From Candidatus Eiseniibacteriota bacterium (lineage in GTDB: Bacteria; Eisenbacteria; RBG-16-71-46; CAZAMP01), in contig OZ245046.1 in the NCBI GenBank assembly GCA_965224245.1, forward strand, positions 4,224,001 to 4,288,000: a DNA stretch of 64,000 nt, read 5' to 3'. The translations under genes and the position numbers were made by a program. A model generated the notes under the pieces. The model was not told the DNA's origin. It saw nothing but the letters and a program-made list of their open reading frames with translations, and ran no database searches. Shown piece by piece: positions 11,964-41,159 of the stretch. Position 1 is the stretch's first letter; each line of letters opens with the position of its first letter.

Positions 11964-11977
11964 ACCGACCGGTCGGT
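11964..11977. promoter_or_regulatory. Perfect 14-bp palindrome ACCGACCGGTCGGT, probable TetR operator
   Basis: Located in the divergent intergenic region, about 100 bp upstream of the TetR-domain ATG. Confidence 0.7.
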
Positions 11978-12074
11978 AGGACACCCGCTGACCGGGCGTG
12001 ACCGCTCCCGGCCCGACAGCGACCGACCCGAACCGCCGCACCCGGCGGCGAGCCAGCCGGAGATCCAGAGACCC

Positions 12075-19592: not shown

Positions 19593-19649
19593 CGGAGACT
19601 CCGCTTCGGGTTCGCCACGGCCGTTCCGGCGGGACCCGACCGCGAATCC

Positions 19650-21140
19650 TCACCGCAGGATCTGAATCCGGAGCGCGCTCGCGGCACCGGTGACGTCGAC
19701 ATAGTAGACGCCCGGCGTCGTCGGTGCACCATGGGTCGTCACGCCGGTCCACACGAACGGGAAGCGGTCGACACGCTGCCGGAAGACCAGGCGCCCGGCC
19801 ACGTCGTAGATCGACACGAGTCGCCGGCCGGAGCCCGGGACGTCGAGCCGGATTGCGCCCCGGGTCGGATTTGGCCACGCCGACGGCACGGGGTGAGACC
19901 CGGTGACCGGCGCGATGCCGACGACCTGATTGAGCGCCCCGAGCGCGTTCACGCGGCCCGATCCGAGCTTGTCGACGTAGGCGCCGTTTCCGGGCAGATG
20001 GTAGATGGCATCGGCCCCGTCCACGACGGCGCTCTGGACCAGAGACGCGGTCCACGTCGGGTGGAGAGACTGGACCAGCGCCGCGATGCCCGACACGAAC
20101 GGGGTGGCGAACGAGCACCCGGCGCCGAGCGCCCACTGCCCACCGGGGTACGAGCTCCGGACCCCGGTGCCCGGCGCGGACACGTCGACCTCCTCGTGCC
20201 AGTCGGCGAAGTCGGCCTTCACGTCCACGGAATCGAGAGCGGTGACCATGATCGTGTCGCCGTCGGATCCCGGGTAGTACGGGGGGATCTCGGTGCTGGC
20301 GTTGCCGGCCGCGGCCACCATCAGCGCCCCCCGCATGTCTCCGTACTGGATCTCCCGCTCGATCGCGTCGACCTCGATCGGCACGCCGAAGCTCATGTTG
20401 AGGATGTCGGCGCCGGACTCGATCGCGTAGCGGATGCCTTCGATGACCCGGAACGCGTCGGCACGCCCCTCGTCGTCGAGAATGCGAACGGGCAGGATCG
20501 AGGCGTCCGGCGCGACCAGCGCGAGAATCCCGGCGACCATCGTGCCGTGGCCGTAGCCGTCGTCGACCTCGCCGTCGCCGTCGTCGTCCAGGTCGTTGAA
20601 CACCTCCCACGGCTCGGCATCGGCATCGACGAAGTCCCAGCCGGACACCAGGTGCCCCACGAGCGCCTCGTGTGTGGGATCCACTCCCGTGTCGAGCACC
20701 GCGATCGTCACCCCGGCGCCGGTCGAGATCGCGTGCGCGGCGTCGAGCGCGATCCGATCGGTCAGGAGCTGATCCTCGTAGTCGACGTATCCGCCACCGA
20801 CGATGATCGCAATCATCTGGCGCACGCCCTCGGGCGTGTCCTCGATGTAGTTCGGCTCGGCGTTCGCGACGTCGGGGTCGCCCGTCATCATCTCGGCAAA
20901 GTTCTCGAGCTCGTCGACACCGTCGATGAACACGAGGTACAGCCCGGCGGTCGCAAAGGAGTCGACCGTCTCGGTGCCCCAGCGCTGGTTCACGTCGTCG
21001 ATCGACGCGCCCTGCTCGAGCCAGAGGACGATCTCGCCGGACTCCCACGTCCCGGTCGCGGAGACACTCCCCGCCACCAGCGTCGCGCTCAGTCCGATCG
21101 CGAGAATCGTGAGAAGCGGGTGCGTGTGTCGGTCAATCAC
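19650..21140 (-). CDS. Secreted S8 subtilisin-like peptidase with a C-terminal FlgD-Ig/T9SS-like sorting domain
   Basis: Signal peptide; triad VLDTG / HGTMVAG / GCSFATP; oxyanion AAAGN; tail 'WPNPTRG...IYDVAGRLV...PGVYYV'. Confidence 0.9.
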   Translation of the reverse strand: MIDRHTHPLLTILAIGLSATLVAGSVSATGTWESGEIVLWLEQGASIDDVNQRWGTETVDSFATAGLYLVFIDGVDELENFAEMMTGDPDVANAEPNYIEDTPEGVRQMIAIIVGGGYVDYEDQLLTDRIALDAAHAISTGAGVTIAVLDTGVDPTHEALVGHLVSGWDFVDADAEPWEVFNDLDDDGDGEVDDGYGHGTMVAGILALVAPDASILPVRILDDEGRADAFRVIEGIRYAIESGADILNMSFGVPIEVDAIEREIQYGDMRGALMVAAAGNASTEIPPYYPGSDGDTIMVTALDSVDVKADFADWHEEVDVSAPGTGVRSSYPGGQWALGAGCSFATPFVSGIAALVQSLHPTWTASLVQSAVVDGADAIYHLPGNGAYVDKLGSGRVNALGALNQVVGIAPVTGSHPVPSAWPNPTRGAIRLDVPGSGRRLVSIYDVAGRLVFRQRVDRFPFVWTGVTTHGAPTTPGVYYVDVTGAASALRIQILR

Positions 21141-21186
21141 GGTCGTCTCCTGGATCTCGGCCCTCGGGAATGATACTGCAGGTCGT

Positions 21187-22971
21187 TCATCGGCGTACCC
21201 ACCGCACCCCGGTGTGGTGCTCCCCCGCGTGCACGTCCACGTAGACGGGCGATCCCACCGCGAAACGGTCGAGGTCGGCCCCGTCGAGTCGCCAGGCCCA
21301 GCCGTCGCCCGAGCGTCGCGGGCGCCCCAGCCGCATGACGAGCCGCCCCGTGACGTCGTACAGCGCGGCGCTGGGCGCGCCCTCGCCGGAAGCGGTCGTC
21401 GCGAGTCGGATGATCAGATGATCGCGAGCGGGATTCGGACTCACCGAAACAGCCAGCCGGGGGCCGGTTGCCGGCACGGACTCGGAGGTCGGAATCGGTC
21501 CCAGCATCTCCAGCCGTCCGTCCGTTCGGCGCGCCATCAGACGATAGCGGTCGCCCGATCGGTGTTCGGACGCGGTGAAGCGAAACGTGGCGCCGCTCGC
21601 GGACATGTCCACGGTGAGCCCGTCGATGGACGAGCCGGAGTGGAACCACCCTCCGGCCAGCTCGGTCTCGGTCAGGCCGCGCACGCGATGGAGCGAGAAC
21701 GCGGCGAACCGGGCGAGGTCGTCGACGGTCCACGTGAGCACCGCGCTCGTGCCGAACCCCTGCGCGTCGAACCCGGACACACCGAGGATCGGGGTGTTGC
21801 GGACGAGATCCACGTCGAACGTGAGCGGACCGTCGACGTGGAGGTCCTCGACCACGCCCTCGGCCAGTCCGCGAAAGGCCGGCGCACGGACGTGGAGGTC
21901 GTAGTCGCCCGGCGGTGCGACCAGGAGAAAGTCGCCGGCGGCGTTCGAGCGCCCCCCGGCCAGCGGGACCTCGGCGCCGCCGGGCTCGCGAAGCTCGAAC
22001 CCGACGTCGGCGACGCCCTCGCCGAGGTCGTCGCGGACCGTGCCGCTCATCGGCCACCCGGTCGACAGCACCACGTCCGGAGCCGATACGTCTCCCGAGA
22101 CGGACACGGTCACCTCGCCCGCGGCGAGCCCCAGGTGCTCGCGGGGCCGGGCCACCAGACGGTAGGTCCCGTTCGGCAGCGCGATCGCGTAGCCCCCGCC
22201 CGCGTCCGTTCGATCTGAGCCCAGCGGAAGCTCGACGCCGTCGACATCGAACGCGTCGAGGTTGGCGCGACCGACTCCGACGCCGCCCGCGGTCACCCGT
22301 CCGGTGACCAGCGACCCGGTCTCGAGCTCGATGACGCCGGTCGACGTGGCGCTCGCTCCGACCGAGACGTCGACCCGTCTCGCGAGGAGCCGTCCGGCGG
22401 ACGGCGGCTCCACCGTGACCCGGAGCTCGACGTTCGACGGGACGACGACGCTGAATGCGCCGCTCGCGTCGGTCTCGTCGTCGGGGCTGTGGATCTTCTC
22501 GTCGGTGTCCGTGCGCCGGAGGCTCAGGTCGGCCCCGTCCACCGGCGTGCTCGTCGGACCCACGACGGTTCCGGTCAGCCGGACACCCACCTCCATCTCG
22601 ACGCGGAAGTCGGCGATGAAGCCCACGAGCGGCCAGTTGACGAACTCGCGCGAGACGAGCGGCTCGCCCGAGACGGCCTCGAACCTGATCCGGTAGCGCC
22701 CGTCGGGCACGATGAAGTCGTAGCTGCCGTCGGTGTCGGTGTCGTCGTCGACGAGATCCAGCGACACGCCATCCGCGTCGATCACGTCGATGTCGATCCC
22801 CGGGATGCCGACCCCGTTGGTCGTGGTGACGCGACCGCTGACGTTGGCGGCGGCGGCGATCGTGGCCGATGTGACGGTGATCGTCGCGAACAGGGCTGCC
22901 CAGCGCACACCGCGCGCGGCCCGGGTGAGGGCCGCGCGGGTGCGGGGGAGGGTGTGCGTCGAGTTCTTCAT
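21187..22971 (-). CDS. Secreted protein with four carboxypeptidase-regulatory-like (prealbumin-fold) repeats and a C-terminal sorting-like domain
   Basis: Repeats 'VSGRV...G...D.DV.D......D.TD..G.Y....P.G.Y'; tail 'SPNPARD...LYDVTGRLV'. Confidence 0.75.
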   Translation of the reverse strand: MKNSTHTLPRTRAALTRAARGVRWAALFATITVTSATIAAAANVSGRVTTTNGVGIPGIDIDVIDADGVSLDLVDDDTDTDGSYDFIVPDGRYRIRFEAVSGEPLVSREFVNWPLVGFIADFRVEMEVGVRLTGTVVGPTSTPVDGADLSLRRTDTDEKIHSPDDETDASGAFSVVVPSNVELRVTVEPPSAGRLLARRVDVSVGASATSTGVIELETGSLVTGRVTAGGVGVGRANLDAFDVDGVELPLGSDRTDAGGGYAIALPNGTYRLVARPREHLGLAAGEVTVSVSGDVSAPDVVLSTGWPMSGTVRDDLGEGVADVGFELREPGGAEVPLAGGRSNAAGDFLLVAPPGDYDLHVRAPAFRGLAEGVVEDLHVDGPLTFDVDLVRNTPILGVSGFDAQGFGTSAVLTWTVDDLARFAAFSLHRVRGLTETELAGGWFHSGSSIDGLTVDMSASGATFRFTASEHRSGDRYRLMARRTDGRLEMLGPIPTSESVPATGPRLAVSVSPNPARDHLIIRLATTASGEGAPSAALYDVTGRLVMRLGRPRRSGDGWAWRLDGADLDRFAVGSPVYVDVHAGEHHTGVRWVRR

Positions 22972-22988
22972 GCGGGCTCGATCCGTTC

Positions 22989-24689
22989 TCAGTTCACCTT
23001 GACCGCCCGGACGGACGCGCCGGAGTCACGATCCCTGACGAGGTACACGCCGGGGCTCACCCGGACGCCGCGCACGTCCAGACCGTCCCAGGTCAGGATC
23101 GATCCGGCGCCGGCCGGGAGCGATCGGACGAGACGTCCGCGGGCGTCGAAGACGTCGAGCGTACCGGCGGAGACGCCGTCCATCGTCACCACGAGGGCGC
23201 GGTGGAACGGATTCGGCGCGGCCGACAGCACACCGCCGGCCAGCCCCGGAACGTCACCGACGGCGACCGCCCGATCGAGCGCGAAGTTCAGCGTCGTGTC
23301 GCCGGTGATCGAGACCCCCAGCTCGGTGGCCGAGTCGAACCCGGAGCCCGCCGGTGGATTCGCCGAGACGTCGTAGACGCCGCCGGGGACGCGCACGCGA
23401 TAGAAGCCGGACACTGACGTATCGTCGTCCGGCGTCGGGTAGTGCTTGCCGGCCACCGCGTCGACGAAATCCATGTCCACGTCCGCGAGGGGGCTTCCGT
23501 CACCCGTGACGGTGCCCGACACCACGAACCCCGCCGAGAGCGTGATGTCCCCGAGCGAACGCGACGTCGAGACCACCTCGTCCCACCGGACCGCGGCGGC
23601 CAGCTCGGCTCCGGCCGGCGGGTTGAGGTTGAAGTCGTAGATCCCGCTGGGGATCACGACCGAGAACGTCCCCGACGCGGTCGTGTTGTCGTTGGGCGTG
23701 TATCGCTCGAGCCCGGTGGCGGTGTCGATCACGTCGACGTCGGCGTCCACGAGCGGGAGACCACCGGGGCCCAGGAGTCGACCGGTGACGGTGAGCGCCG
23801 CCCTGAGCACGGTCTCGCCGATGTCGGTGGAGCCGCCGATCGCGACGTCCGGGACGCGCTCGGGTGCGAACGGGCTTGCGGGGGCCGGCTTGAAACGGAA
23901 CTCGTACACGCCGGCCGGGAGGAACACCGACCAGTCCCCGAAGAAATCGCTGTCGTCGCCGGAGAGAAAGCGCTCGACGCCGTCCTCGTCGAGCACGTCC
24001 ACGTCGACGTTGAACACCCCCGCGCCGACCTCGTCCACGACGCGCCCGGTCACCGTGAGGCCGGGGCGCAGGACGAAGGTCTCGAACCCGGGAACGCTCG
24101 TGTCGTAGCTCTCGCGCCACTCCGGGGCGCGAGCGCCGGTGTCGTCGGTCACGATCACGTCGTGGATGCCGACGGGCACCATCACCGCCAGATCCCCGAG
24201 CTCGTCCGGGTCGTCGTCGCGCAGGAAGACGTCGTCGCCGGTGCTGGTGTCGATCAGACGCAAGGTACATGCCACATACGGAGCGCCGCCCTCGTCCTGG
24301 ACGTGAATGGTCAAGAGCGTCCCATCGGGCAGGATCGTCGGCGGGAGCGTGGTGTCCGTCTCCAGATCCACGCTCTCCAGGAACACCGGGGCGTACGAGC
24401 CCCCGGGGGGCCCGAGAACGGTGATGTCGTACCGCCCGGCCGGGATGATCACCTGGAAATAGCCGGTCGCGTCGGTGTGGTCGCCCGTGGGGTCCACCTC
24501 GGAGTCCGTATCCTGGTTAAACCAGTCCAGATCGGCATTTACGATGGGGGCCCCGCCCGTGGTCCGGACGAACCCGTCCACGATCACCGCGTTCGATTCC
24601 GCCGCGAGAGCCACCGCCAGGATGGCGCCGGCAATCCATGCCCGGCGACCCGCGGTCGGGGGGCGCCGCCGATCGGTCCGTTCCGTCAT
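22989..24689 (-). CDS. Secreted protein with five carboxypeptidase-regulatory-like repeats and an FlgD-Ig tail; paralog of the neighbouring gene
   Basis: Signal peptide, five ~85-aa repeats, tail 'APNPF...VFDARGRLVR...WDGLD..G..VSPGVYLVR'. Confidence 0.8.
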   Translation of the reverse strand: MTERTDRRRPPTAGRRAWIAGAILAVALAAESNAVIVDGFVRTTGGAPIVNADLDWFNQDTDSEVDPTGDHTDATGYFQVIIPAGRYDITVLGPPGGSYAPVFLESVDLETDTTLPPTILPDGTLLTIHVQDEGGAPYVACTLRLIDTSTGDDVFLRDDDPDELGDLAVMVPVGIHDVIVTDDTGARAPEWRESYDTSVPGFETFVLRPGLTVTGRVVDEVGAGVFNVDVDVLDEDGVERFLSGDDSDFFGDWSVFLPAGVYEFRFKPAPASPFAPERVPDVAIGGSTDIGETVLRAALTVTGRLLGPGGLPLVDADVDVIDTATGLERYTPNDNTTASGTFSVVIPSGIYDFNLNPPAGAELAAAVRWDEVVSTSRSLGDITLSAGFVVSGTVTGDGSPLADVDMDFVDAVAGKHYPTPDDDTSVSGFYRVRVPGGVYDVSANPPAGSGFDSATELGVSITGDTTLNFALDRAVAVGDVPGLAGGVLSAAPNPFHRALVVTMDGVSAGTLDVFDARGRLVRSLPAGAGSILTWDGLDVRGVRVSPGVYLVRDRDSGASVRAVKVN

Positions 24690-24736
24690 TCCTCTTTCTC
24701 CTACAGCCGGGTTTCAGCCACGTGTGTCGCGTAGGT

Positions 24737-24765
24737 AGGGGTGCTCGGCGGGGGGCGCTTGATAC
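24737..24765 (-). promoter_or_regulatory. Putative ECF promoter GTATCA-N17-ACCCCT driving the surface-protein/S8 operon
   Basis: Same spaced motif as three other intergenic sites in the module. Confidence 0.65.
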
Positions 24766-24806
24766 GGCGCCGGGCCAGAATCTCGCGAGGAAATCACGGT
24801 AGGGGC

Positions 24807-24835
24807 GTATCAACCCCCCCACGGATCCAACCCGT
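24807..24835 (+). promoter_or_regulatory. Putative ECF promoter GTATCA-N17-ACCCGT driving the GT/kinase/porin/ABC operon
   Basis: Same spaced motif; back-to-back with the 24737-24765 site. Confidence 0.65.
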
Positions 24836-24875
24836 TCTCCGCACGATGGGGCTCGGTGACGCAAGGGAGAGTCCG

Positions 24876-26030
24876 TTGGGTCGGCGGTACGTGATCTACT
24901 CACACGATGGCTTCGGGATGGGCAACATCCGGCGCAACCACGCGGTGGCGAAGCGGATCGTCGAGCGAGACGCCGACGCCAGCGTGCTGTGCCTGACCAG
25001 CTCCCGCTATCTCCATTTCCTGCCGCGACATCCCCGGATCGAGCTCGTGAAGCTCCCCGAGGTGCTGCGGGTGGGCCGCGGCGAGTACCGCTCTCGGACC
25101 GAGGGAGTGGCCATCCGTCCCCTGCTGGCCGCCCGGCGCGAGATCATCCGGGGAGCGATCAAGGGGTTCGATCCCGACGTGCTCCTGGTGGACAAGACGC
25201 CCGACGGCATCGCCGGCGAGCTCCGACCGCTCCTCGCGGGGCTGGATCGGGATCGCACGCGCGTCGCCCTGATTCTGCGTGACGTCCTGGACGAGCCGCG
25301 GTGGACCCGCGAGTTCTGGGCGCGCACGGGCCAGTACGACTGTCTCACCGAGTCCTACGACGCGGTCACCATTCTCGGAGATGACGCGCTCTTCGACACC
25401 GCCACCGCGTGCGGGCTCGATCGCGTGCCCGGCGTCGACGTCGCATACTGTGGGTACCTCGTCCGCGAGGCCCCCCACGACGACCCGGAAGCCCCCGAGC
25501 CCCTCGGCGACCGGTTTCTGATCTCGGTGGGTGGCGGCGAGGACGGCCTGGAGGTGATGCAAGCCTCCATCCAGGCCCTCTCCTCCATGGCGGCCGGCGA
25601 GCGTCCTGCGATCGACGTCGTGTTCGGGCCGTTCTTTCCGGCCGACGACCGCGATCGGTTGACGGCGACGTTCCAGCGACTGACCGATGCGCGGTGCACG
25701 AGCTTCGAGCGTCATCTCCGCGAGCGCATTCGCACGAGCCGCGGTGTGATCAGCATGGCCGGCTACAACACGGTGTGCGAGATCCTCGAATCGAGCGCCC
25801 CGGCCCTCGTCGTTCCCCGGCGCCACCCCAGCCGCGAGCAGGTCATCCGGGCCTCACGGATGACCGAGGTCGGCATCGTCGACTCGCCGGAGACCGCCGA
25901 GGCCACGCCGGAGCGCATTCGCGACTTCTTCACGTCGCCGAGACCACAGGACCGGAGCCGCTTTCGCCGCGGCGGCCACGACGGGATCGCCGGCCGAGCC
26001 GAGTCCCTCGCGACGCTGGCGCGGTGCTGA
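24876..26030 (+). CDS. GT-B glycosyltransferase (COG4671/GT28-like)
   Basis: 'YSHDGFGMGNIRR', 'PDVLLVDKTP.G', 'SVGGGEDG', 'SMAGYNTVCE', 'VPR....EQ..RA'. TTG start after AAGGGAG; alternative ATG at 24846. Confidence 0.85.
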   Translation: MGRRYVIYSHDGFGMGNIRRNHAVAKRIVERDADASVLCLTSSRYLHFLPRHPRIELVKLPEVLRVGRGEYRSRTEGVAIRPLLAARREIIRGAIKGFDPDVLLVDKTPDGIAGELRPLLAGLDRDRTRVALILRDVLDEPRWTREFWARTGQYDCLTESYDAVTILGDDALFDTATACGLDRVPGVDVAYCGYLVREAPHDDPEAPEPLGDRFLISVGGGEDGLEVMQASIQALSSMAAGERPAIDVVFGPFFPADDRDRLTATFQRLTDARCTSFERHLRERIRTSRGVISMAGYNTVCEILESSAPALVVPRRHPSREQVIRASRMTEVGIVDSPETAEATPERIRDFFTSPRPQDRSRFRRGGHDGIAGRAESLATLARC

Positions 26031-26033
26031 GCG

Positions 26034-31830: not shown

Positions 31831-33613
31831 CGTCCGGACCGCCGCGCTGTGGCGGCGGGAGCAGCTCTCGCGGGCGTGGCACGTCATCCGCACGTTCGCG
31901 CCGTACGCGAAGCGGCACCGCGCCCTGGCCCTGGGGGCGTTCGCCAGCATCGTCGCCGGCGCCGGAATCCGCGTACTTCAGCCCCTGCCGCTGAAGTACC
32001 TGTTCGACGACGTACTGATCCCGTCGGCCGACACGATCGCCCGGTCCGAGCCGGTCGCGTTTCCAGCGCGGACGATCGCACTCATCTGCGTGGCGATTCT
32101 CGCGGCCGGCGTGGCGGCGGGGTTTGCGTTCTACGGCGAGCGCGTGCTCGCCGCCCGCGCGGGCCAGGCCATCGTGTCGTCGATCCGACGGAGCCTGTTC
32201 GGTCACGTGCTCCGGCTACCGCTGAGCGACTTTCGCACGCTCAAGCGCGGGGAGATCCTGAACCTCCTGGGACGCGACGTGGAGCACCTCCGCGAGCTCC
32301 TGGTCAACGTCATCCTCGACGTCGCCGGGTCGGTCGTGCACGTGGTGACGATGCTGACGATCATGTTCCTGCTGAACCCGCGGCTGAGCCTGGTCGCCCT
32401 GGCCATACTGCCCCTGGTCGGGCTGGCGTCGGTCGAGGTCTCGTTCACGATGCGCGACGTGGCGCGCAAGCAGCGGCGGCGCGAGAGCCTCCTTCTCAGC
32501 TCGGCCCAGAACGTGCTCGACGCGATGCCGATCGTGAAGATCTTCGGGCGTGAGCGCTCGGAGCGGCGGCGCTTCGCGCGCGACAACCGGGCCACGCGTC
32601 GAGCGGGGGTCAAGCTGAAGCGGCTCGAGGCCGCCCTCGTGCGCCGCGTCGAGGTGCTGCTGGCGCTCGCCACGTGCGTGTTCATCTTCGTCGGCGTCCG
32701 TGAGGTGTGGCTGGGCGAGCTGAGCGCCGGCGGCCTGTTGCTCTTCGCGTCGTATCTGAAGTCCTTCCAGAAGCCCATCCGCCGGCTCACCCGCAGTGCG
32801 GCCAAGCTCTCGCGCGCGACCACGTGCGGCGAGCGCGTCGCCGAAGCCTTCGCACGTCCGATCGAGCTCGATACCGAGGGTCCCGAGGTCGAGGAGTGCG
32901 CGCGCTCGCTGTCGGGCGAGGTGACGTTCGAGGACGTTTCGCTTCGCTACCCCGACGGTACCGTCGCGCTCCGGGACGTGTCCTTTCACGTCCCGGCCGG
33001 GTCGGTGGTCGCGCTGATCGGTCCGAGCGGCGCGGGAAAGTCCACGCTCGTGTCCCTGATCACGCGCCTGATCGATCCCACCTCCGGCATCGTTCGATAC
33101 GACGGACAGGACGGCACGAGGATCCCGCGCGGCGTCGTGCGCCGCCACGTGACCGCCGTGTTCCAGGAGAGCTACCTCTTCGACGGCACCATCGCCGAGA
33201 ACCTGCGCTACGGCCGCGAGGACGCCGACGACGCGGATCTCCGCGAGCACGCCGTTCGGGCCAATGCGTGGTCGTTCGTGGAGGCACGAGGCGACGTGCT
33301 CGAGGCGCCCGTCGGGGACTTCGGCCGGCAGTTCTCCGGGGGTGAGCGCCAGCGCCTCACGGTTGCACGGGCACTCCTGCGCAACGCGCCGATCGTGCTC
33401 CTCGACGAGCCGACCCGGGGACTCGACGACGTCTCCGCGGCCGCGGTCCGTCGGGCGCTCGTGGACTACGGTCGGGGACGCACGGTATTCTGGGCCACCC
33501 ACGACCCCGAGGAGGTCTCTCACGCCGACCTCACGCTCGTCGTGACCGAGGGTCGAGCCCGTCTGCACCGGGGTGCCCCTCAGGCGGCGCTCGGGGAGGT
33601 ACCGGCATCGTGA
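31817..33613 (+). CDS. ABC exporter with fused TMD and NBD (MsbA/Sav1866-like)
   Basis: About 6 TM segments, then GPSGAGKST, FSGGERQR, LLDEPT. Confidence 0.92.
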   Translation: MPRIDVRTAALWRREQLSRAWHVIRTFAPYAKRHRALALGAFASIVAGAGIRVLQPLPLKYLFDDVLIPSADTIARSEPVAFPARTIALICVAILAAGVAAGFAFYGERVLAARAGQAIVSSIRRSLFGHVLRLPLSDFRTLKRGEILNLLGRDVEHLRELLVNVILDVAGSVVHVVTMLTIMFLLNPRLSLVALAILPLVGLASVEVSFTMRDVARKQRRRESLLLSSAQNVLDAMPIVKIFGRERSERRRFARDNRATRRAGVKLKRLEAALVRRVEVLLALATCVFIFVGVREVWLGELSAGGLLLFASYLKSFQKPIRRLTRSAAKLSRATTCGERVAEAFARPIELDTEGPEVEECARSLSGEVTFEDVSLRYPDGTVALRDVSFHVPAGSVVALIGPSGAGKSTLVSLITRLIDPTSGIVRYDGQDGTRIPRGVVRRHVTAVFQESYLFDGTIAENLRYGREDADDADLREHAVRANAWSFVEARGDVLEAPVGDFGRQFSGGERQRLTVARALLRNAPIVLLDEPTRGLDDVSAAAVRRALVDYGRGRTVFWATHDPEEVSHADLTLVVTEGRARLHRGAPQAALGEVPAS

Positions 33614-34917
33614 CGACGTCCGTGCCCCGGTTCATTCCGTCTCGCTGGCTCGGCGAGACTCCGGATGCACCGCGCGATCCGGATCTGCCCGAGGCCGACC
33701 TCCTGACCGATCGCGCCACGCTGGCGAGCTGGCTCTCCGCGTCGTGGAACGTCCCGGGCGCCGTCGATCCGTCGGAGATCGTGTACGAATCGGTTCGCTA
33801 CAAGCCCGGCGTGCGGCTGACCGCGGTGACCCGGCTGGGCGCCCTGCGAGTCACCTGGCGGGCGTTCCCCACAGGCGACGCCGAGGTTGCGTGGCAGAAG
33901 CTGATCGACGGCGGCGTTCGCGGACAGGATCGCCTGCGCGCGGGATCCATCATCGGGCTCCGCTTCCCCCAGGACCACGTGCTGAGCGGGCTGACGCGTC
34001 TCGTCCCCGGCCGGCTCGGCGCGACGTACGTCCGCCGCCTGATCCCCGGCCTGACCGACGAGCGCACGCGCCTCCGCTCCTACAGCTTCGACCCCACGCT
34101 GATCCGCTACAAGCCGGAGCGACACGCCGTGTTCCATCTGACGTTCACGGTGCGCGACGCCGGTGACGGACACAAGGAGCGCCGCCGGGCGATCGCGCGC
34201 GTGCTCCCGCCCGGCTCGCCCCCGCCGCCGGCGCCGGAGACGTCGTTCACCCCGCGGCCCCTGGCCTGGGACGCCGACAACGGCGTGTCGATCGAGTCGT
34301 TCGTGCCGGGCCGCACGCTGGCCGCCGTGCTCGCGGGGGGCGGTGACGACGAGCTCGCGCCGGATGCCGGCACGGTGATCGCGCGCGATGACGCCCTCAC
34401 CATGGTCGGGTCGGCGTTGGCCGCCCTTCACGCGCTCGGCGCGGTCGGGCGACGGATCCTCGAACCGCCGAGGGCACACGTCCCGCTCTGGGAACCGGCA
34501 ATCCGAGACGACGTCTCGCGCGTGATCGCCGCGCTCGCGGCAGCCGCCTCGCCGGTGGCGTCGCCGACCACCGTCCACGGAGACCTGCATCCCGGTCAGG
34601 TCCTGTTCGACGGCGAGAGGTGGTGGCTCGTCGATCTGGACAAACGAGGCCGGGCGGCGCCCGAGCGCGATCTCGGAGACCTGATCGCCGCGCTCCTCGA
34701 GGCCGACGCCGGCGCGAGCCTCCAGGAGCTCCGCGCGCCGCTCGTCGCGGGCTACCGGCGGGCGGGGGGTGGCACGCTCTCGGAGTCGGCGCTACGCACG
34801 TGGACCGCGGCCGCCGTCGTGCGCCGGGCCGAGGCGCCGCTACGCAACCTCCATCCGGACCGCCACGCGATCGCCCGGCGCCTGCTCGCGCTGGCGGAGG
34901 ACATCGCCGGTACCTGA
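33610..34917 (+). CDS. APH/choline-kinase-like phosphotransferase
   Basis: Two 'RYKP' motifs, 'VHGDLHPGQV', 'LVDLD', 'ERDLGD'. Confidence 0.8.
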   Translation: MTTSVPRFIPSRWLGETPDAPRDPDLPEADLLTDRATLASWLSASWNVPGAVDPSEIVYESVRYKPGVRLTAVTRLGALRVTWRAFPTGDAEVAWQKLIDGGVRGQDRLRAGSIIGLRFPQDHVLSGLTRLVPGRLGATYVRRLIPGLTDERTRLRSYSFDPTLIRYKPERHAVFHLTFTVRDAGDGHKERRRAIARVLPPGSPPPPAPETSFTPRPLAWDADNGVSIESFVPGRTLAAVLAGGGDDELAPDAGTVIARDDALTMVGSALAALHALGAVGRRILEPPRAHVPLWEPAIRDDVSRVIAALAAAASPVASPTTVHGDLHPGQVLFDGERWWLVDLDKRGRAAPERDLGDLIAALLEADAGASLQELRAPLVAGYRRAGGGTLSESALRTWTAAAVVRRAEAPLRNLHPDRHAIARRLLALAEDIAGT

Positions 34918-34921
34918 CCGA

Positions 34922-37726
34922 TCAGGTCCCGTGGACCGCGAACGCTCCCCAGTAGAACGGATGATCCCAGCGATCGCGCACCTCGCGACGCGCCGAACGC
35001 AGTGCCTCCAGGGGATCCCGCCGGTCCGCCGCCGCGTAGCCACGGTGGAACGCGCTCATCAGGGCGAGCGTCGACTCGTCGTGAACGCGCCAGTTGCTCG
35101 CCACGAGCTGCCGGACGCCGGACGCCAGGAACGCGTGCGCGACGCCGGAGAGATCGTCGCCTCGACCCGAGAACACCTGGCCGGTGTTGCACGCGCTCAG
35201 CACGACCAGATCCGCGCGCATCCGCAGATCGAGCACGTCGGCCATGAAGAGCGCGCCGTCGGTGGTGCTGAGTCGCGAGAACAGCGGGTTGTCCTCGCGG
35301 AACACGCCGTGGGTCGCCAGGTGCACGAGATCGTACCCCGGTAGCTCGCGCACCAGCTCGCTCGACGAGGGATCCAGCCTCACGTCCACCGTCGTGTCCG
35401 CCACGCCCGCGAGGCTGTCGGAGACGGCGGCCACCTCGGACGCCACGTGAACGGGCGTGTTGCGCACGGTTCCGGCGACCAGCACGCGTGCGAGCGGGCG
35501 GCGACGTCTCGCGATCGCCAGCACGTCGGCCGTGGGCAGCCGCGAGAGATGCCAGCGCGACTCGACGTAGACGTAACCGTCGTGGAGACACTCGAAGGGC
35601 ACGTGGTGCAGGCTCCGATGCGGAACCAGATGGAGGTGCGCGACGTCCGCCAGCTCGTCCTCGAACGGACGCACGAGGCCGTCGTAGAGCGGACCGAGCG
35701 TGGACAGCGACGAACGCGTCATGAAGTCGAGGTCGACGACGCCGTCCCCGACCATGGCCATCGTGTCCAGCTGGAAGCGGTTCTCGCCGAGGAGCCGGTG
35801 GACGTCGCCGGGCGCGATCTCGAGCACGCGCCAGGCGCATCGATCCCGGCGGGCGCAGATGGCCACGATGCGTTCGTCGGTCTCGAAGTAGAGGATCGCC
35901 GCGTCCGTCGGACCGAGGGTCTCCATCACGAGGTCGAGCGAGTGTGCGTCCGCGCCACCGGTGCCGCTCGAGCGCCGGGCGTCGCGTCGACGCATCAGCT
36001 CGGCGATCCGGCGCTCGGTGCGGCGGATGTCCCTCTGGACCGGCTCGCGGACGTCGCTGGCGGCACCTTCGTGTTCGAGATCCTGCAGACGCTGCGTGAG
36101 CGCTCCCAGCACCGCCCGCTCCTCGGCCAGAGCCGCGTCGTCGGCGTCGCCGCCGATCGGGTCGGAGCGATGGAGACGCTCGCGATGGGCGCGCCCCCGC
36201 GCGCGCTCGAAGAGCGCGTAGAGCCGGGTCGCCGAGGTACGTCGGCCCGCGGACAGGACGTCGATCAGGTCGTGGTACGCGCGGACGTGATCCTCGAACG
36301 CACGGGACCGGTACTCGATTCCGGGGATGAGCTGGAGCTGCCGCTCGACCTCCCGGACGGCGCGGCGCAGGCGGCGGCCGGCCTCGGCGTGCTCGCCGCG
36401 GGCGCGGGCGATGCGGCCTGCCAGCGACCAGATGCGTCCCCGATCTCCCGGCGATGCGGACGCGGCCCGGGCCAGCGCCTCGTCCACCGCGCGCTCGGCC
36501 CGGGTGAGCCGACCGGCCATCACGTGTCCGATGGCGATCAGGCGGTGCCCCTCGGCGCCGATCGAGTCCACGTCGCGACGGTGCATCGACCGGAGCGCGC
36601 GGCGCGCATGCCGGATCGCGGTCGACGGGTCCCCGAGCATCAGCCGCGCCCGCGCCGCGAGGAGCGCCGCGCTCGCGGCGCGCGGCGCCATGCGTTGCCC
36701 CCGGAAGTACGCCCACGGCTCGGCGAGCCGCTCCAGTGCCAGCGTGGGCTCGCCCGCGATCAGGTGGGCCCGGGCGATCAGGACGCGCGAGAGCGCCGCG
36801 TCCAGGTCCAGCCCGTCACGCGCGAACTGCTCGGCGGCGAGGCGTGCGTGCTCGATCGCCTCGGCCGCCATCGACAGCTCGAGGTACACGTGCGCGCGCT
36901 CCCGCTCGGTGGCGGCCACGAGATCCGAGGCACCCTGGGAGCCGAAGTGAGCGCGGGAGGACTCCAGCAGCTCGAGTGCACTCCTGAAGTCACCGCCCAG
37001 GCGCTGGAGGTGGGCGCGGTCGAGCTCGGACAGACCGACGAACCGCTCGAGCCCGAGGCGGCGCGCCAGGCGCTCCGCCTCCAGGAACAGCGCGCGGGCG
37101 TCACGCAGCCGCAGGAGCTTCGTGCAGGCGACCGCCTGGTTGATCAGGAGGCTGACGCGTGTCTCGTCGTGCCCGTCGAGACGCCCCAGCGCGTCGGCGG
37201 CGACACGGTACCAGTCGAACGCCTCGTCGTAGCGCTCGGCGTGATAGGCGTTGCTGCCCTGGACGCCGGCGAGCTTGCCCAGGTAGACGTCGTCACGGGC
37301 GCGGGTCAGAAGTCGTCTCGCCTGCTCGGCGCGGCGACGGGCCTCGTCGAGGCGGCCCACGAGCCCCAGCACACCCGTCCACCCAACCAGCGTCTGACCC
37401 AGGAGACGCTCCTCGTGCGCGGCGTTCGCGATGTCGACCGAGCGCGCGTAGGCGTCGCTTGCGCGCTTGAACCGCCCCATGAACGCCAGCGCCTCGCCGG
37501 CGCTCCGCCAGGCCATCGCGAGGGCGAAGGGGTCGACGTCGTCCTGAACGCGCTCCACGCACCGGCGGAACGCACCGGCCAGCGTGTGCGCCTCCCGCGG
37601 ATCGCTGGCCAGCAGCCCGGCGATGCGATCGCGCGTCGCCTGCGCCTCCTGGCGATCGAGCGGCTCAGCACGCGCGTCCAGCCACCGGTGGAGCTCGGCG
37701 GCGGTCATGTCGGGTATGGAGGTCAC
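34922..37726 (-). CDS. TPR-CHAT caspase-like cysteine protease
   Basis: Long Ala/Arg/Leu-rich TPR-like region; CHAT motifs 'LVPHRSLHHVPF', 'VHLATHG' (His), 'VVLSACNTG' (Cys), 'ASNWRVHD', 'HPFYWGAF'. Confidence 0.93.
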   Translation of the reverse strand: MTSIPDMTAAELHRWLDARAEPLDRQEAQATRDRIAGLLASDPREAHTLAGAFRRCVERVQDDVDPFALAMAWRSAGEALAFMGRFKRASDAYARSVDIANAAHEERLLGQTLVGWTGVLGLVGRLDEARRRAEQARRLLTRARDDVYLGKLAGVQGSNAYHAERYDEAFDWYRVAADALGRLDGHDETRVSLLINQAVACTKLLRLRDARALFLEAERLARRLGLERFVGLSELDRAHLQRLGGDFRSALELLESSRAHFGSQGASDLVAATERERAHVYLELSMAAEAIEHARLAAEQFARDGLDLDAALSRVLIARAHLIAGEPTLALERLAEPWAYFRGQRMAPRAASAALLAARARLMLGDPSTAIRHARRALRSMHRRDVDSIGAEGHRLIAIGHVMAGRLTRAERAVDEALARAASASPGDRGRIWSLAGRIARARGEHAEAGRRLRRAVREVERQLQLIPGIEYRSRAFEDHVRAYHDLIDVLSAGRRTSATRLYALFERARGRAHRERLHRSDPIGGDADDAALAEERAVLGALTQRLQDLEHEGAASDVREPVQRDIRRTERRIAELMRRRDARRSSGTGGADAHSLDLVMETLGPTDAAILYFETDERIVAICARRDRCAWRVLEIAPGDVHRLLGENRFQLDTMAMVGDGVVDLDFMTRSSLSTLGPLYDGLVRPFEDELADVAHLHLVPHRSLHHVPFECLHDGYVYVESRWHLSRLPTADVLAIARRRRPLARVLVAGTVRNTPVHVASEVAAVSDSLAGVADTTVDVRLDPSSSELVRELPGYDLVHLATHGVFREDNPLFSRLSTTDGALFMADVLDLRMRADLVVLSACNTGQVFSGRGDDLSGVAHAFLASGVRQLVASNWRVHDESTLALMSAFHRGYAAADRRDPLEALRSARREVRDRWDHPFYWGAFAVHGT

Positions 37727-37823
37727 GGCGTCTCTCGGGAAACGGTCGAGGCGACCGGCCTGACGACGGGATGGCCGGCGGCGACCCCCGGGGCCCGAGT
37801 GTGACCGATCCCGGACCCGGCGG

Positions 37824-38480
37824 CTAGGAGCCGCCTTCCGAGGGAACGTTCACGAGCACGGACTGGTCGCCGATCCGGAGCCGTAGCGACCGGACACCGG
37901 CCGGCAGGTCGGCCAGCCGGAAGCGGCCCAGCTCGCCGATCGGTGCCTCGAGGCTCTGTCCGTCGCCTTCCACGGACACCAGCCCGCCGGGCTCGATCGA
38001 CGCCCCGCTCCTCGGAACGAGCTGCCCGTCGATCGTGGTCGACCCGTCCGCGCTCCGGGTGAGATTGATGGAGATGACCAGATCCGGGGTCTCGTACACG
38101 AGCATCCTGGGGGTGGCGACGCCCGATCCGCGAAGGTTGAGCGCCGGCTGGAGCGAGTCGCGAACGAGAGCCGCCGCCACCTCACGCGCGGCCTCCGACA
38201 GTGACGACAGCGCCCGGATCGCCAGCTCGCGGAGCGTCGTGCGATCGGGGCGAGAGGTCTCTGCGCGCAGGAACGCGAGGGAGCGCTCGATCGTGTCGGC
38301 CGTGGGCGTGAACGCGCGAGCGTCGGACATGGCGGACGAGAGCATGGCGATGCGCACCAGCTCGTCGCAACAGGTCTCGCAGCCCGCGACGTGGCTCTCG
38401 ATCGCCGGGTCGGTCTCCAGATGATGCGCCCAGAGCGCCTCCCAATCGGGATGACCGGCGTGCTGCGTGTCAGAACTCAT
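37824..38480 (-). CDS. Soluble anti-sigma-like protein with an N-terminal ZAS/zf-HC2 motif and a C-terminal carboxypeptidase-regulatory-like beta domain
   Basis: 'HVAGCETC' (HX3CX2C); no TM segment; ATGA-coupled to the sigma gene; C-terminus 'GELGRFRLADLPAG'. Confidence 0.75.
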   Translation of the reverse strand: MSSDTQHAGHPDWEALWAHHLETDPAIESHVAGCETCCDELVRIAMLSSAMSDARAFTPTADTIERSLAFLRAETSRPDRTTLRELAIRALSSLSEAAREVAAALVRDSLQPALNLRGSGVATPRMLVYETPDLVISINLTRSADGSTTIDGQLVPRSGASIEPGGLVSVEGDGQSLEAPIGELGRFRLADLPAGVRSLRLRIGDQSVLVNVPSEGGS

Positions 38481-39076
38481 GGCCTCGAGTCTCCCTCAGG
38501 CTCGCGTGCGTCGTCGCGCTCGCTTGCAATGAACAACGTCGAGAGCTGTTTCAGGCACCGCCCCCGCGTGGGACCGATGCTCCCGACCGGCAGTCCCTCG
38601 CGCTCGGAAATCGCCTCGTAGCTGGGCCGAGGATCCTCCAGATAGAGCATCCTGAGGAGCCGCCGGCATCGTTCGCTGATCGCGTCCAGCGCATCGTCGA
38701 GTCGGCTCATGTCCTCGAAGCGCTCCAGGGCCTCGGCGAAGTCCGGGTCCGACACGCCGGCGAGCACCTCCAGGAACGGGTCGTCCCCGGCGAGGCGAAC
38801 CTCCCGGCGACCCGCCGCAATCCGCTGCAGCGCGACCCGCCGCGCGATCACGTAGACCCACGACGCGAGCCGATCGGCTCGACGAAGCCGGCCGATCGCC
38901 CCGTGCACGGCCACGAGCGTGTCCTGCAGGACCTCCTCGTGCTCGGATGCGTCGAGTCCGACCTTGTGGGCAGCGAAGTAGACGAGCCGGCCGTACGAGC
39001 GCACGAACTCCCGCCATGCCGCATCCTCCCCGCGAGCGAGGGCCTCGACCAATGCATCCGGCGCCGTGTCCGTCAC
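38477..39076 (-). CDS. ECF sigma-70 family RNA polymerase sigma factor
   Basis: Region 2 'GEDAAWREFVRSYGRLV..EEVLQDT..LASWVYVIARR'; region 4 'RCRRLLRMLY..PSYEAIS..GLPVGSIGPTRGRCL'; AGGAG SD before the GTG. Confidence 0.93.
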   Translation of the reverse strand: MTDTAPDALVEALARGEDAAWREFVRSYGRLVYFAAHKVGLDASEHEEVLQDTLVAVHGAIGRLRRADRLASWVYVIARRVALQRIAAGRREVRLAGDDPFLEVLAGVSDPDFAEALERFEDMSRLDDALDAISERCRRLLRMLYLEDPRPSYEAISEREGLPVGSIGPTRGRCLKQLSTLFIASERDDAREPEGDSRP

Positions 39077-39108
39077 GGGTAGAAGCTCCTAAGCTATTGA
39101 TGCTTCTT

Positions 39109-39138
39109 ACTCTAGACGGACCAGAGCCGCGCGGTCAA
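39109..39138 (-). promoter_or_regulatory. Sigma70-like promoter TTGACC-N18-TAGAGT upstream of the ECF sigma gene
   Basis: Near-consensus hexamers 33-62 bp upstream of the GTG. Confidence 0.55.
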
Positions 39139-39176
39139 CGATTGCTGGCCCCGGATGTCCTCCGGGCGGCTTGCAG

Positions 39177-39205
39177 AGAAGTGCATCCGGGCCCTCGGTT
39201 GATAC
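39177..39205 (-). promoter_or_regulatory. Putative autoregulatory ECF promoter GTATCA-N17-ACTTCT
   Basis: Shared spaced motif upstream of the sigma/anti-sigma/CHAT operon. Confidence 0.65.
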
Positions 39206-39229
39206 ATGCATTCCCGGCCTGGACGGCGC

Positions 39230-39258
39230 GTATCAGATGTGCGCGGGCGCCAACGTGT
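39230..39258 (+). promoter_or_regulatory. Putative ECF promoter GTATCA-N17-ACGTGT, probably giving a leaderless mRNA
   Basis: Shared motif; ATG 39264 lies 6 nt after the final T and has no SD. Confidence 0.65.
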
Positions 39259-39263
39259 GGGTC

Positions 39264-41081
39264 ATGACGTGCGAATCCCGATCCACGATCGCCCCAGCGG
39301 CCCGCGACGGGGTCCTGCCCCGGGGGGCCCTCGTGATGGCCGCGACGGCCCGGACCGGGCTGGGTCACGTGCGCCGCCTGGGGCGCCTGGCCGACTCGTT
39401 CCGGCGATTTCGCCCGGACCTCCCCATCGCCCTGCTCACGAACGCCGCGCGGGATCGGATCCCGTCCAACCTGGCAGGACCGTTCGACGCGATCGCGACC
39501 GCGGACCGCGCCGACATGAGCCGGGCCCTCGCCGGCTCGGAGCCGTCGCTCGTCGTCGTCGACACGGCCAGGGTGCCGGACCTCGACGCGGTGGGCGCGC
39601 GTTGCGCCCTCGTTCTCCGGCAGGTCGTGGAGTCGCACGTCCCGCAGTTCGCGCTCCAGGGCCGCCCCTGGGATCTCGTGATCATCCCGAACCCGCCGGA
39701 CGCCTGGCGCCCCCGGCTCGACGCGCGGTTCACACGCAGCGCCGTCTGGGCCGGATGGATCTCCGAGGCCGTCGACCGGACCGGCCGGGGCGCCGACGCG
39801 TCCGCCGTTCCGTCGATCGTGGTGACCTGTGGCGGAAGCGATCGAAGCGTTCCCGAAGCGTTGGTCCGGTCCCTGGTCGATGGGATCCGCCGGCAGTGCG
39901 AGCCGCTGGACGTGATCGAGCTGGTCGGCCCGGGCGCGGCGCCCGTGCTGGACGACCAGGCGCGTGTCATCCGGTCCGCACCCGACCCGATGGAAATCAT
40001 CGCGTCCGCGAGCCTCTGCATCTCGGCCTCCGGATACAACACCGTCCTGGATCTGGCCCGGACGGACACCCCGGCCGTGCTCATCGGCAAGGAGCGGCGC
40101 CACGACGACCAGCCCGAGCGAGCGCGACAGTGGGGACCGCGCCTGGGAGCGGTGTGCCTCTCACCCCACGACGTCGCCGACACCGTGGAGTGGTGCCGTC
40201 ACACGCTCGCCGGGCGAACGCGGCGGGCCCCGATCGACCTCGGTCCGCGCGGGGACGACGTGGCCGCCGAACGCCTGGCGAGGTTGATCCGCGTGAGTCG
40301 CCACGGCAGCCGGGGCGAGAAGCGACTGTTGCCGCGGGATCGATCCGGTCACGCCCTGGCGCGACTCTCCGAGGAGATGCGCGCGCGCGGCGCGCCGACT
40401 CCGCGCCTCGACTCGCCGACCCCGGGCACGCTCACCTGGAGATGGCAGGCCGGCGCGACCGCGGCGGAGCTCTGGCGGGCCGACGCGCGCGAGGCGTCTC
40501 GGGACCGGCTCGTCTCGCGGATCGCGACCGCGGTCCGGCACTTTCACGTGCCGTCGGGCGGGCTGGGGCTCGATCGTTACGATCCCTGGTGTCGGGTCCG
40601 GTCGCGCGTGGCGGATCTCCGGCGGTCCCATCCCGAGCTCGCCTCGGTCGCCGACGCCCTGGTGTCGGCGATCGACGCGCGCATCCACGCCTCGTGGCGT
40701 GTCTCCGAGGACGGCGAGTGCGTCGTCCACGGCGATCTCCACGTGGGCCAGCTCGTCGTCGGACCCGACGGCGAGCTCTCCGTGATCGACCTGGACGACG
40801 TCGCGCGCGGCCGTCCCGAGTGCGATCTCGGCAACTTCATCGCCCACCTCGAGACCTCCACGCCGGAGCCCGAGGACGCCGACACCCGCCGCCGGTGGCG
40901 ACGCGTGCTGCCCCGCGCCTACCGCGAGGCCGGCGGGACGTGCGACGACGACGTGCTTCATGCGTTCGCACAGGCGTCCCTCGTGCGCCGGGCGCTGAAG
41001 CGCTTCGAGTCGAACCGGGACCCGGAAGGGCTCGCCGGCCGGCTCCAGCTCATTCGACGGGAGCTGGACCCGGCCCGCTGA
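39264..41081 (+). CDS. Fusion of a GT28-like glycosyltransferase and an APH-like phosphotransferase
   Basis: N-terminal 'TGLGHVRR', 'VTCGGS', 'SASGYNTV', 'DDQPERA'; C-terminal 'VHGDLHVGQ', 'IDLDD', 'DLGNFIAH'. Confidence 0.8.
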   Translation: MTCESRSTIAPAARDGVLPRGALVMAATARTGLGHVRRLGRLADSFRRFRPDLPIALLTNAARDRIPSNLAGPFDAIATADRADMSRALAGSEPSLVVVDTARVPDLDAVGARCALVLRQVVESHVPQFALQGRPWDLVIIPNPPDAWRPRLDARFTRSAVWAGWISEAVDRTGRGADASAVPSIVVTCGGSDRSVPEALVRSLVDGIRRQCEPLDVIELVGPGAAPVLDDQARVIRSAPDPMEIIASASLCISASGYNTVLDLARTDTPAVLIGKERRHDDQPERARQWGPRLGAVCLSPHDVADTVEWCRHTLAGRTRRAPIDLGPRGDDVAAERLARLIRVSRHGSRGEKRLLPRDRSGHALARLSEEMRARGAPTPRLDSPTPGTLTWRWQAGATAAELWRADAREASRDRLVSRIATAVRHFHVPSGGLGLDRYDPWCRVRSRVADLRRSHPELASVADALVSAIDARIHASWRVSEDGECVVHGDLHVGQLVVGPDGELSVIDLDDVARGRPECDLGNFIAHLETSTPEPEDADTRRRWRRVLPRAYREAGGTCDDDVLHAFAQASLVRRALKRFESNRDPEGLAGRLQLIRRELDPAR

Positions 41082-41159
41082 CGGTGCGACTCGCGGCGCC
41101 GGATCGGCTATCATACCGCCCCGGTGACGGAGCCTGAGGTCCAAACAGGAGGCGAACGC

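Follow-up and report, generated by a model that had tools for sequence, protein, structure and literature searches.

How a sigma factor might be held in check by a neighbouring caspase-like protease, and which genes such a switch would turn on, are the questions raised by a locus of Candidatus Eiseniibacteriota (assembly GCA_965224245.1, here labelled G000; 6.9 Mb, 97.4% complete). The stretch analysed, referred to below as the window, comprises 64,000 nt of contig OZ245046.1; the locus lies at 19650..41081, where a search with Pfam and NCBIfam profiles found 13 genes in four divergently arranged units (Table 1). A preliminary description had placed there a sigma factor of the extracytoplasmic function (ECF) type, a protein with a zinc-binding anti-sigma (ZAS) motif and a protease with tetratricopeptide repeats (TPR) and a CHAT domain, flanked by glycosyltransferase (GT), kinase, ATP-binding cassette (ABC) transporter and surface-protein genes, and all of these genes were confirmed at the place given. 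We slightly favour the reading of the locus as a protease-gated ECF switch with an envelope output.

Sigma factor, probable zinc anti-sigma protein and TPR-CHAT protease

The sigma factor holds regions 2 and 4 only, as expected for this type, and the gene at position +1 codes for a protein without a Pfam match. The sigma profile matched 86 of the 206 genomes of the phylum and the +1 protein had matches in 50 of 206, the named relatives of both proteins being Candidatus Eisenbacteria. A comparison set was formed from 40 stretches around the best +1-protein matches in relatives plus a paralogous module of the same genome, 41 loci in total; the +1 family as a whole has 3,090 representatives at E <=1e-10. 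The zinc motif consists of H10 and H30-x3-C34-x2-C37, with C34 and C37 present in all 41 homologues, H30 in 40 and H10 in 38. Sequence and model both place this HxxxCxxC motif and its N-terminal ligand in a helical bundle, as in class I ZAS proteins, and zf-HC2 matches weakly in 9 of the 41. Structure prediction (mean predicted local distance difference test, pLDDT, 85.9) gave helices up to residue 98, a loop at 109-124 and an immunoglobulin (Ig)-like sandwich. Fold searches with this model returned no match at E <=0.001 and did not list Csx30; the best Z was 7.9, for a generic Ig-like fold, and ChrR appeared at E 0.019 only.

The modelled complex of sigma factor and +1 protein scored 0.82, against 0.48 for the best of three controls, and the calibration mark is reached by 116 of 157 solved pairs and by 2 of 215 mismatched ones. 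The runs agreed in at least 91% of contacts, with a partner pLDDT of at least 75. The predicted interface sets +1 residues 13-94 on sigma residues 18-81 and 119-183, that is on regions 2 and 4, the surest contacts being 47-64. Together with the conservation of the motif, this model bears out the earlier suggestion of an anti-sigma factor: the +1 protein is very probably a zinc anti-sigma factor whose N-terminal helices clamp sigma regions 2 and 4, and a sigma70-type promoter would supply sigma, anti-sigma and TPR-CHAT together.

The TPR-CHAT protein (934 residues, model pLDDT 89.7) folds in prediction into a TPR solenoid, a coiled coil and a CHAT domain (PF12770, 151.6 bits), with the His-Cys dyad following the TPRs as in CHAT/C50 peptidases, and no signal peptide was found when the sequence was read by eye. 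Separase and Csx29 were its top structural matches, and DdvA was also among the best. The catalytic His and Cys, described earlier as intact, are indeed so: H806, C846 and W879 are invariant in the CHAT homologues, the dyad in 35 of 35. Position 883 is Asp or Glu in all 35 and Ser in the aligned Csx29; the equivalent Asp of separase presumably binds the P1 Arg. Asn ladders in TPR grooves bind extended peptides, and the groove of this family carries conserved Asn at 155, 158, 196 and 236. A ligand, most likely a peptide in this groove, would activate the CHAT domain.

Arg is found at position 117 of the +1 protein in 40 of the 41 homologues, followed by Gly in 34. HetF of Anabaena, a CRISPR-free CHAT protease, cleaves PatU3 after Arg, and PatU3 binds the regulator HetZ (PMC9457339, PMC7377430). 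Since HetF cuts after Arg and the product of the gene next to CHAT offers a conserved Arg in an exposed linker, this protein is a candidate natural substrate of CHAT, with Arg117 as the candidate cut site. We give a slight preference to a course in which CHAT would cut after Arg117 and remove the Ig-like domain, the sigma-bound fragment then being degraded by general proteases. In Csx30 the sigma-binding N-terminal part is likewise left whole by the cut, and fragment instability was proposed (PMC10028731).

The same proteins could be arranged as a classical zinc or redox switch, the sigma factor being released on oxidation or zinc loss, with CHAT and the S8 protease as outputs that act on other substrates. 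The intact ZAS motif and the position of the Arg117 loop outside the modelled sigma interface would fit such a switch, as would the promoters of relatives: in many the anti-sigma promoter lies inside the sigma coding 3' end, a negative-feedback design, and in most a promoter inside or just after that end drives anti-sigma and CHAT, so that CHAT would itself be a target. We nevertheless hold it unlikely, as CHAT is present in 39 of the 41 loci and the actinobacterial-type +1 proteins, which lack a zinc finger, keep the Arg linker (xR[GSAT]/xRG), the Ig domain and a helix-Pro-helix stretch when compared by eye. The C-terminal part also matched the Nonomuraea +1 protein in a profile comparison with a probability of 94.8.

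Promoter motif and glycan cassette

According to the preliminary description, all four transcription units start behind one spaced motif. This holds for the hexamer GTATCA, which precedes all four; a fifth site in front of the S8 gene (at 21176 on the minus strand) and a sigma70-like promoter of the sigma gene had been missed, and four of the five -10 elements are weak. The four main sites carry [CG][AC]AC 15 nt after GTATCA, and the five sites face five target starts. AC occurs at that distance in 49 of the 650 GTATCA sites of the genome, the chance of a shared dinucleotide being ~0.007. A TGATAC..GTATCA pair, 10-70 nt apart, is found twice in the whole 6.9-Mb genome (0.9 expected), both times in this locus.

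Among the relatives, G000 being left out, a sense-strand GTATCA situated ~230 nt or less upstream of the gene was seen for 17 of 37 anti-sigma, 9 of 43 S8, 9 of 21 GT and 1 of 47 sigma genes, at a background of 0.017. A second element, [CG][GC][AT]CT[AGC][CT], follows 15-17 nt downstream in 35 of 36 sites of relatives, giving GTATCA-N15-17-[CG][GC][AT]CT as the family promoter. We are highly confident that free sigma would fire such promoters in the family, and somewhat less so, though still confident, for the five sites of the window, where the targets would be its own operon (feedback), the S8 gene, the cassette described below and secreted cargo of T9SS type (type IX secretion system). Two other readings of the motif were rejected: an inward-facing TGATAC as -10 element, because relatives have the sense-strand GTATCA with a downstream second element, and chance occurrence, because of the enrichment in relatives and the genome-wide pair count. 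Of 44 sigma genes, 8 have the sigma70-like pattern upstream, both paralogues of G000 among them, compared with 0.8% of random stretches.

Elsewhere in the window, a GTATCA at 7908 (+) with a weak -10 lies ~100 nt before a TauE/SafE gene (8008-8754) and its similar-looking neighbour (8759-9481), probably by chance. The back-to-back TGATAC..GTATCA pair was also seen between two divergent GT genes of a relative (L091:742-782), in a stretch that holds no module.

The cassette genes overlap or almost touch at their stop and start codons. The lead gene codes for a GT28-like enzyme (24846..26030), which we take to be of the COG4671 type, and the AlgE-like barrel was recognised by PF13372 with 57.6 bits. 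Within the locus only GT28-like and GT4 glycosyltransferases were found and no GT2 membrane synthase, so that a short or lipid-linked glycan with phosphate groups is likelier than an alginate-type polymer, the AlgE-like barrel notwithstanding. It is reasonably probable that the GT28-like and GT4 enzymes build such a glycan, that three APH-like kinase domains phosphorylate it and that the ABC exporter and barrel export it. ABC-dependent glycan export with a capping kinase is known from WbdD of E. coli O9a, and T9SS cargo anchors to anionic lipopolysaccharide. The window cassette, with its GT-B enzymes, kinases (a methyltransferase in one relative), ABC exporter and cargo with C-terminal sorting tails, may work in a similar manner, the likeness being one of function only; its exporter is a fused MsbA-type protein, in contrast to the separate Wzm and Wzt of that pathway. 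The net effect of the switch would be a coordinated remodelling of the surface or matrix.

Whether the cassette belongs to the module was judged from the lead GT, the search for which covered 55 of 205 relatives. Of the 43 genomes that have the sigma, 22 also have this GT, and of the 12 without the sigma none does, several genomes being incomplete. Sigma, S8 or CHAT genes lie next to the GT in 13 of these 22 loci. A further 3 carry the motif, the fetched stretch holding no module; in 4 a contig end interrupts the locus, and the remaining 2 have neither such a neighbour nor the motif. The co-occurrence of module and cassette genes in other genomes, which the preliminary description had made the touchstone of its proposal, was thus found together with the shared promoter, and the 16 of 22 loci that adjoin the module or follow the motif suggest that the GT/kinase/ABC/barrel cassette is a conserved output of the sigma module. 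What the relatives keep is the GT28-like enzyme with two or three GT4 enzymes, an ABC exporter and APH-like kinases, together with an outer-membrane barrel and secreted tail proteins; barrel and cargo vary in type. In metagenomes a GT gene is divergent from sigma in 4 of 80 sigma loci, most of them on short contigs; two of the four are near-identical and one has proteins named Pyrinomonadaceae, and the link to a second phylum (Acidobacteriota) rests on these four loci.

In 9 of the 22 relatives (L075, L077, L079, L081, L084, L085, L088, L089 and L092) the GT reading frame continues across a hydrophobic, signal-like segment and on into a probable barrel, recognised by its aromatic C-terminus and without a Pfam match, and a methyltransferase is fused likewise to an AlgE-like barrel (G038; L072:12664-15873). 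If the internal signal were cleaved, the enzyme would stay attached to the inner membrane; for the kinase-barrel fusion of the window, an internal start at Met369 may be used instead. A frameshift or assembly slip behind the two fusion genes of the window could be discarded, because the covering contigs from three runs of one sample, possibly the source sample of the window, show 0 substitutions and 0 indels over the locus (X1 record 1 spans 22500-33507 and X2 record 11 spans 30016-41500). A further frame of the window, 11331-14204 (+), joins TetR and outer-membrane efflux (TolC-like) domains ahead of a resistance-nodulation-division (RND) pump and may be another fusion of a cytoplasmic and an outer-membrane part, or two in-frame genes.

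Several points speak against a switch of this kind at the window locus. The score of the sigma/+1 complex may stem from likeness to solved ZAS/sigma pairs, one control having reached 0.48, and a cut at Arg117 would leave the modelled sigma-binding domain whole, so that release needs a further step. Scored with the family -10 matrix, the site before sigma takes rank 33 of 650, and the other four, at 213, 241, 278 and 296, are weak and at background; either the specificity of the local sigma has shifted or the sites are weak. The relatives counted for the lead GT are not independent, and 2 of the 22 GT loci (G027 and G044) show neither adjacency nor motif. The cassette is optional: it is missing from the paralogous locus and from 21 of the 43 genomes with the sigma. 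Rhizobial and Sulfitobacter homologues lie among other genes, and no sigma is annotated within 9 kb of them. In the window CHAT, finally, three of the four conserved TPR Asn residues are lost (V155, S158, D236).

The weak -10 elements and the lost Asn residues would also be expected of a partly decayed or rewired copy, its cassette being driven by the paralogous sigma or constitutively and no longer gated by the local triad. The region-2 loop of the window sigma, which reads LRRAD, unusual against the LRDP of others, and its long branch in a quick tree point in the same direction. All frames and catalytic residues are intact, however, and the four sites share a -10 element of their own, with AC always equally far from GTATCA, as would fit a shift in specificity by which the two paralogues are insulated from each other; we regard decay as very unlikely and retain the gated switch.

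Table 1. Features of the locus in window coordinates
Feature	Position	Strand	Remarks
Secreted S8 subtilase, fourth core gene	19650..21140	-	signal peptide (by eye), prodomain, FlgD/T9SS-type tail
Hydrophobic insert at S8 pro/mature junction, residues 103-116	20793..20834	-	conserved; candidate peptide cue or possible autoinhibitory strand
Fifth GTATCA site, just upstream of S8 gene	21147..21176	-	weak -10
Second secreted CarboxypepD_reg repeat protein	21187..22971	-	
Secreted CarboxypepD_reg repeat protein	22989..24689	-	FlgD/T9SS-type tail; homologues inside cassette in L072, L087, L090, L091
Promoter-like site, surface-protein operon	24738..24765	-	GTATCA-N15-GCACCC
Promoter-like site, cassette	24807..24834	+	GTATCA-N15-CAACCC
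GT28-like glycosyltransferase	24846..26030	+	first cassette gene
APH-like kinase fused to DUF5666 and AlgE-like outer-membrane barrel	26034..28964	+	fused via internal signal-like segment (~27156-27233)
GT4 glycosyltransferase, EpsE/WcaL-like	28952..30601	+	below cut-offs
GT4 glycosyltransferase	30598..31830	+	
MsbA-type ABC exporter	31817..33613	+	membrane domain plus ATPase
APH-like kinase	33610..34917	+	HGDLH..Q and DxD motifs intact
Cytoplasmic TPR-CHAT protein, separase/Csx29 architecture	34922..37726	-	H806/C846 dyad; D883 candidate S1 acid
Soluble zinc anti-sigma protein (predicted)	37824..38480	-	H10/H30/C34/C37 in helical domain (residues 1-98); candidate cut site Arg117 in linker; residues 125-211 Ig-like
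ECF sigma factor, ECF54-like	38477..39076	-	TIGR02937 67.9 bits (cut-off 42.9); region 4 motif GSIGPTRxRC
Sigma70-like promoter, putative basal sigma expression	39109..39138	-	TTGACC-N18-TAGAGT; same in paralogue
Promoter-like site, sigma/anti-sigma/CHAT	39178..39205	-	GTATCA-N15-GCACTTC; best of five
Promoter-like site, GT-kinase gene	39230..39257	+	GTATCA-N15-CAACGT
GT28-like/APH kinase fusion	39264..41081	+	predicted start 39264, probably leaderless

S8 protease, secreted proteins and a possible wider regulon

The sigma/anti-sigma/CHAT triad had been presented as a self-contained unit, a view that needs correction in two respects. The S8 protease is a fourth core member, present in 34 of the 41 loci centred on the +1 protein, as against 5 with cassette genes. 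In addition, a second module is encoded elsewhere in the genome (G000:C1:3573372-3579231, locus L002), with sigma, anti-sigma and CHAT, a divergent S8 gene and no glycan genes. Its products are 43% (CHAT), 31% (+1 protein), 43% (sigma) and 49% (S8) identical to those of the window; GTATCA occurs before its S8 gene and inside the sigma 3' end, and the sigma70-like promoter is the same.

The motif is also enriched before dispersed genes for secreted proteins. The tails of the window proteins match TIGR04183 with 20-22 bits, below the cut-off of 23; SprA, PorV and C25 genes are present in the genome, and G000:C1 contains ~440 genes with a FlgD/T9SS-type tail. When the two modules are set aside, 12 of 436 tail genes have the full motif (score >=2) upstream, as against 13 of 4513 other genes (odds ratio 9.8, p 3e-7); a point against this result is that the gene calls, from our own script, and the tail model were both our own. 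Restricting the comparison to upstream gaps of at least 60 nt left 12 of 405 tail genes and 11 of 2728 others, and neither five control hexamers nor a shifted -10 gave a significant enrichment before tail genes at score >=2. With this enrichment and a paralogous module in the genome, the locus is not self-contained, and the dispersed T9SS-type secreted genes may be served by either of the two sigma paralogues. A strong motif was also noted at an ArsR-like helix-turn-helix gene (G000:C1:3465818, minus strand; family assigned by eye), and in an acidobacterial locus the module has an ArsR-like gene after it (L143:11522-12118).

The S8 protease of the window is exported and therefore cannot cut the cytoplasmic anti-sigma protein. 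The insert at its pro/mature junction is conserved, with P103 in 41, E104 in 42 and R107 in 40 of 43 proteins, followed by hydrophobic residues and GG. It is conceivable, if doubtful, that this insert is the ligand which activates CHAT. In a wider and improbable scheme the S8 protease carries the trigger: the junction peptide, either released and re-imported or exposed to the cytoplasm when export jams, would bind the Asn-lined TPR groove and activate the separase-like, Arg-specific protease, and the freed sigma would induce T9SS-type cargo together with the phosphorylated glycan that anchors or embeds it. If true, surface assembly would have a caspase-like signalling loop set off by a peptide, with enzyme-barrel polyproteins holding the glycan enzymes at the inner membrane. 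No linked importer was found in the class and no Opp importer among the annotated recurrent neighbours; one recurrent ABC cluster includes a binding protein of sulfate/molybdate type (SBP_bac_11). A co-variation between the TPR groove and the insert of S8 can be seen (L068, L087), but it follows the tree and was hence not counted. In two metagenome loci (L143 and L175) the insert is a short W-S-V-G motif in 2-3 tandem copies, similar to a multi-copy peptide precursor.

Relation to ECF54 and to other described systems

In the quick sigma tree most sigmas of the class group together (Shimodaira-Hasegawa-like approximate likelihood ratio test, SH-aLRT, 94) beside an actinobacterial-type group (99), both within a larger group (92). 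The window sigma is for this reason best filed, as far as such a tree can tell, as ECF54-like, beside rather than inside the actinobacterial-type group; a scan of the genome contig with the single sigma as query gave one distant match. The work of Huang et al. 2015 is said to be associated with the ECF54 group. The ECF54 neighbourhood in print includes a carboxypeptidase-regulatory-like gene at +1, a subtilase and a TPR-CHAT protein, with a predicted -35 of GTATCAG (Casas-Pastor et al. 2021, PMC7826278). The same source describes the group as restricted to Actinobacteria (100%), with a 'lack of putative AS factor', a -10 of CTCC and no target genes, and proteolytic control has been proposed for it (PMC7826278, PMC8999054).

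The window locus shares with that neighbourhood the sigma, the subtilase, the TPR-CHAT protein, the GTATCA -35 and a +1 gene of CarboxypepD_reg-like kind; in the latter the likeness is weak, as 6 of 41 homologues match PF13620 (best 2.9e-4) and the window protein has no match. The base after GTATCA is G in 19 and A in 10 of 36 sites, and the family -10, [CG][GC][AT]CT[AGC][CT], includes ACTCC; the window sites deviate from this family -10. In contrast to ECF54 as described, the +1 protein of the locus has a ZAS motif and modelled sigma binding, the S8 protease is secreted and bears a T9SS-type tail, the output is a glycan cassette, and the named relatives are Candidatus Eisenbacteria. Because the actinobacterial-type +1 proteins keep the helix-Pro-helix stretch, the xRG linker and the Ig domain, ECF54 probably has an anti-sigma factor after all. 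The core module (sigma, +1 protein, TPR-CHAT, S8) matches the already catalogued ECF54 neighbourhood and is not categorically new. In eight further loci (L130, L133, L146, L168, L177, L182, L185 and L187) related sigmas without anti-sigma or CHAT matches have GT4 genes nearby, and glycosyltransferases may be a recurring output of this sigma family.

The gating of a transcription factor by CHAT without CRISPR has a precedent in HetF/PatU3/HetZ, where the cut of an inhibitor frees a transcription regulator and envelope morphogenesis follows in Anabaena; HetF differs in having a transmembrane part and acting at the divisome, and no S8 protease or ZAS protein is described in those accounts. The suggested arrangement thus loses part of its novelty. 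In type III-E CRISPR systems Csx29, Csx30 and CASP-sigma likewise combine a soluble TPR-CHAT protein with a two-domain inhibitor whose N-terminal part binds an ECF sigma and which is cut distal to the binding domain. That system needs Cas7-11 and target RNA, has Ser in place of D883 and an inhibitor of 565 aa. The window CHAT is no Csx29 orthologue by NF041237 (18.7 bits, cut-off 300), and the 97.4%-complete genome gave 0 matches to PF03787, the RAMP family of Cas7-11, in agreement with the proposed independence from CRISPR. In Myxococcus, a zinc anti-sigma domain and TPR-CHAT control the ECF sigma DdvS; unlike the separate proteins of the window, DdvA is a single transmembrane protein with a periplasmic, incomplete CHAT, and its regulon is a CBASS-CRISPR island (PMC11506125).

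TPR-CHAT/sigma pairs studied in CRISPR and CBASS islands serve defence, and with Csx29 and DdvA among the best structural matches the locus might be taken for an anti-phage or conflict system, in which the TPR part would recognise a protein of the invader and the glycan and surface proteins, once induced, would hide receptors. The module is, however, common and multi-copy across the class; PADLOC returned a generic subtilase match only for the module genes; besides the lack of a RAMP gene in the genome, no defence gene was found among the annotated recurrent neighbour families (17 representatives scanned of 34 clusters). A role in defence seems distinctly unlikely to us. The locus points instead to the synthesis of envelope glycan and secreted proteins as the job of caspase-like switches in this lineage.

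ECF54-type modules are widespread, and the literature search found no experimental test of them (also cited: bioRxiv 10.1101/2023.06.23.546230, PMC8195603). What appears new, so far as that search reached, the ECF group supplement being covered in part, is the link from the switch to a conserved glycan cassette and T9SS-type cargo, for which no description was found. With a modelled anti-sigma factor, a single residue as candidate for the cut, a promoter whose orientation is given and target genes that are conserved, the locus holds what an experimental test requires, and it would provide a regulatory handle on a common, uncharacterised glycosyltransferase/kinase/ABC cassette.

Three genes adjoin the locus, none of them recurrent in relatives. 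An FAD oxidoreductase gene downstream of the S8 gene (18575-19732, minus strand) and a DUF4920 lipoprotein-like gene after the GT-kinase gene (41124-41723, plus strand) may be co-transcribed with their neighbours, and 41773-44499 (minus strand) codes for a Ser/Thr kinase that has a zinc ribbon at its N-terminus and a region crossing the membrane several times. No Rfam family was found within 18000-42000. The contig G000:C1 carries 16 CHAT-domain matches and 10 peptidase C25 matches.

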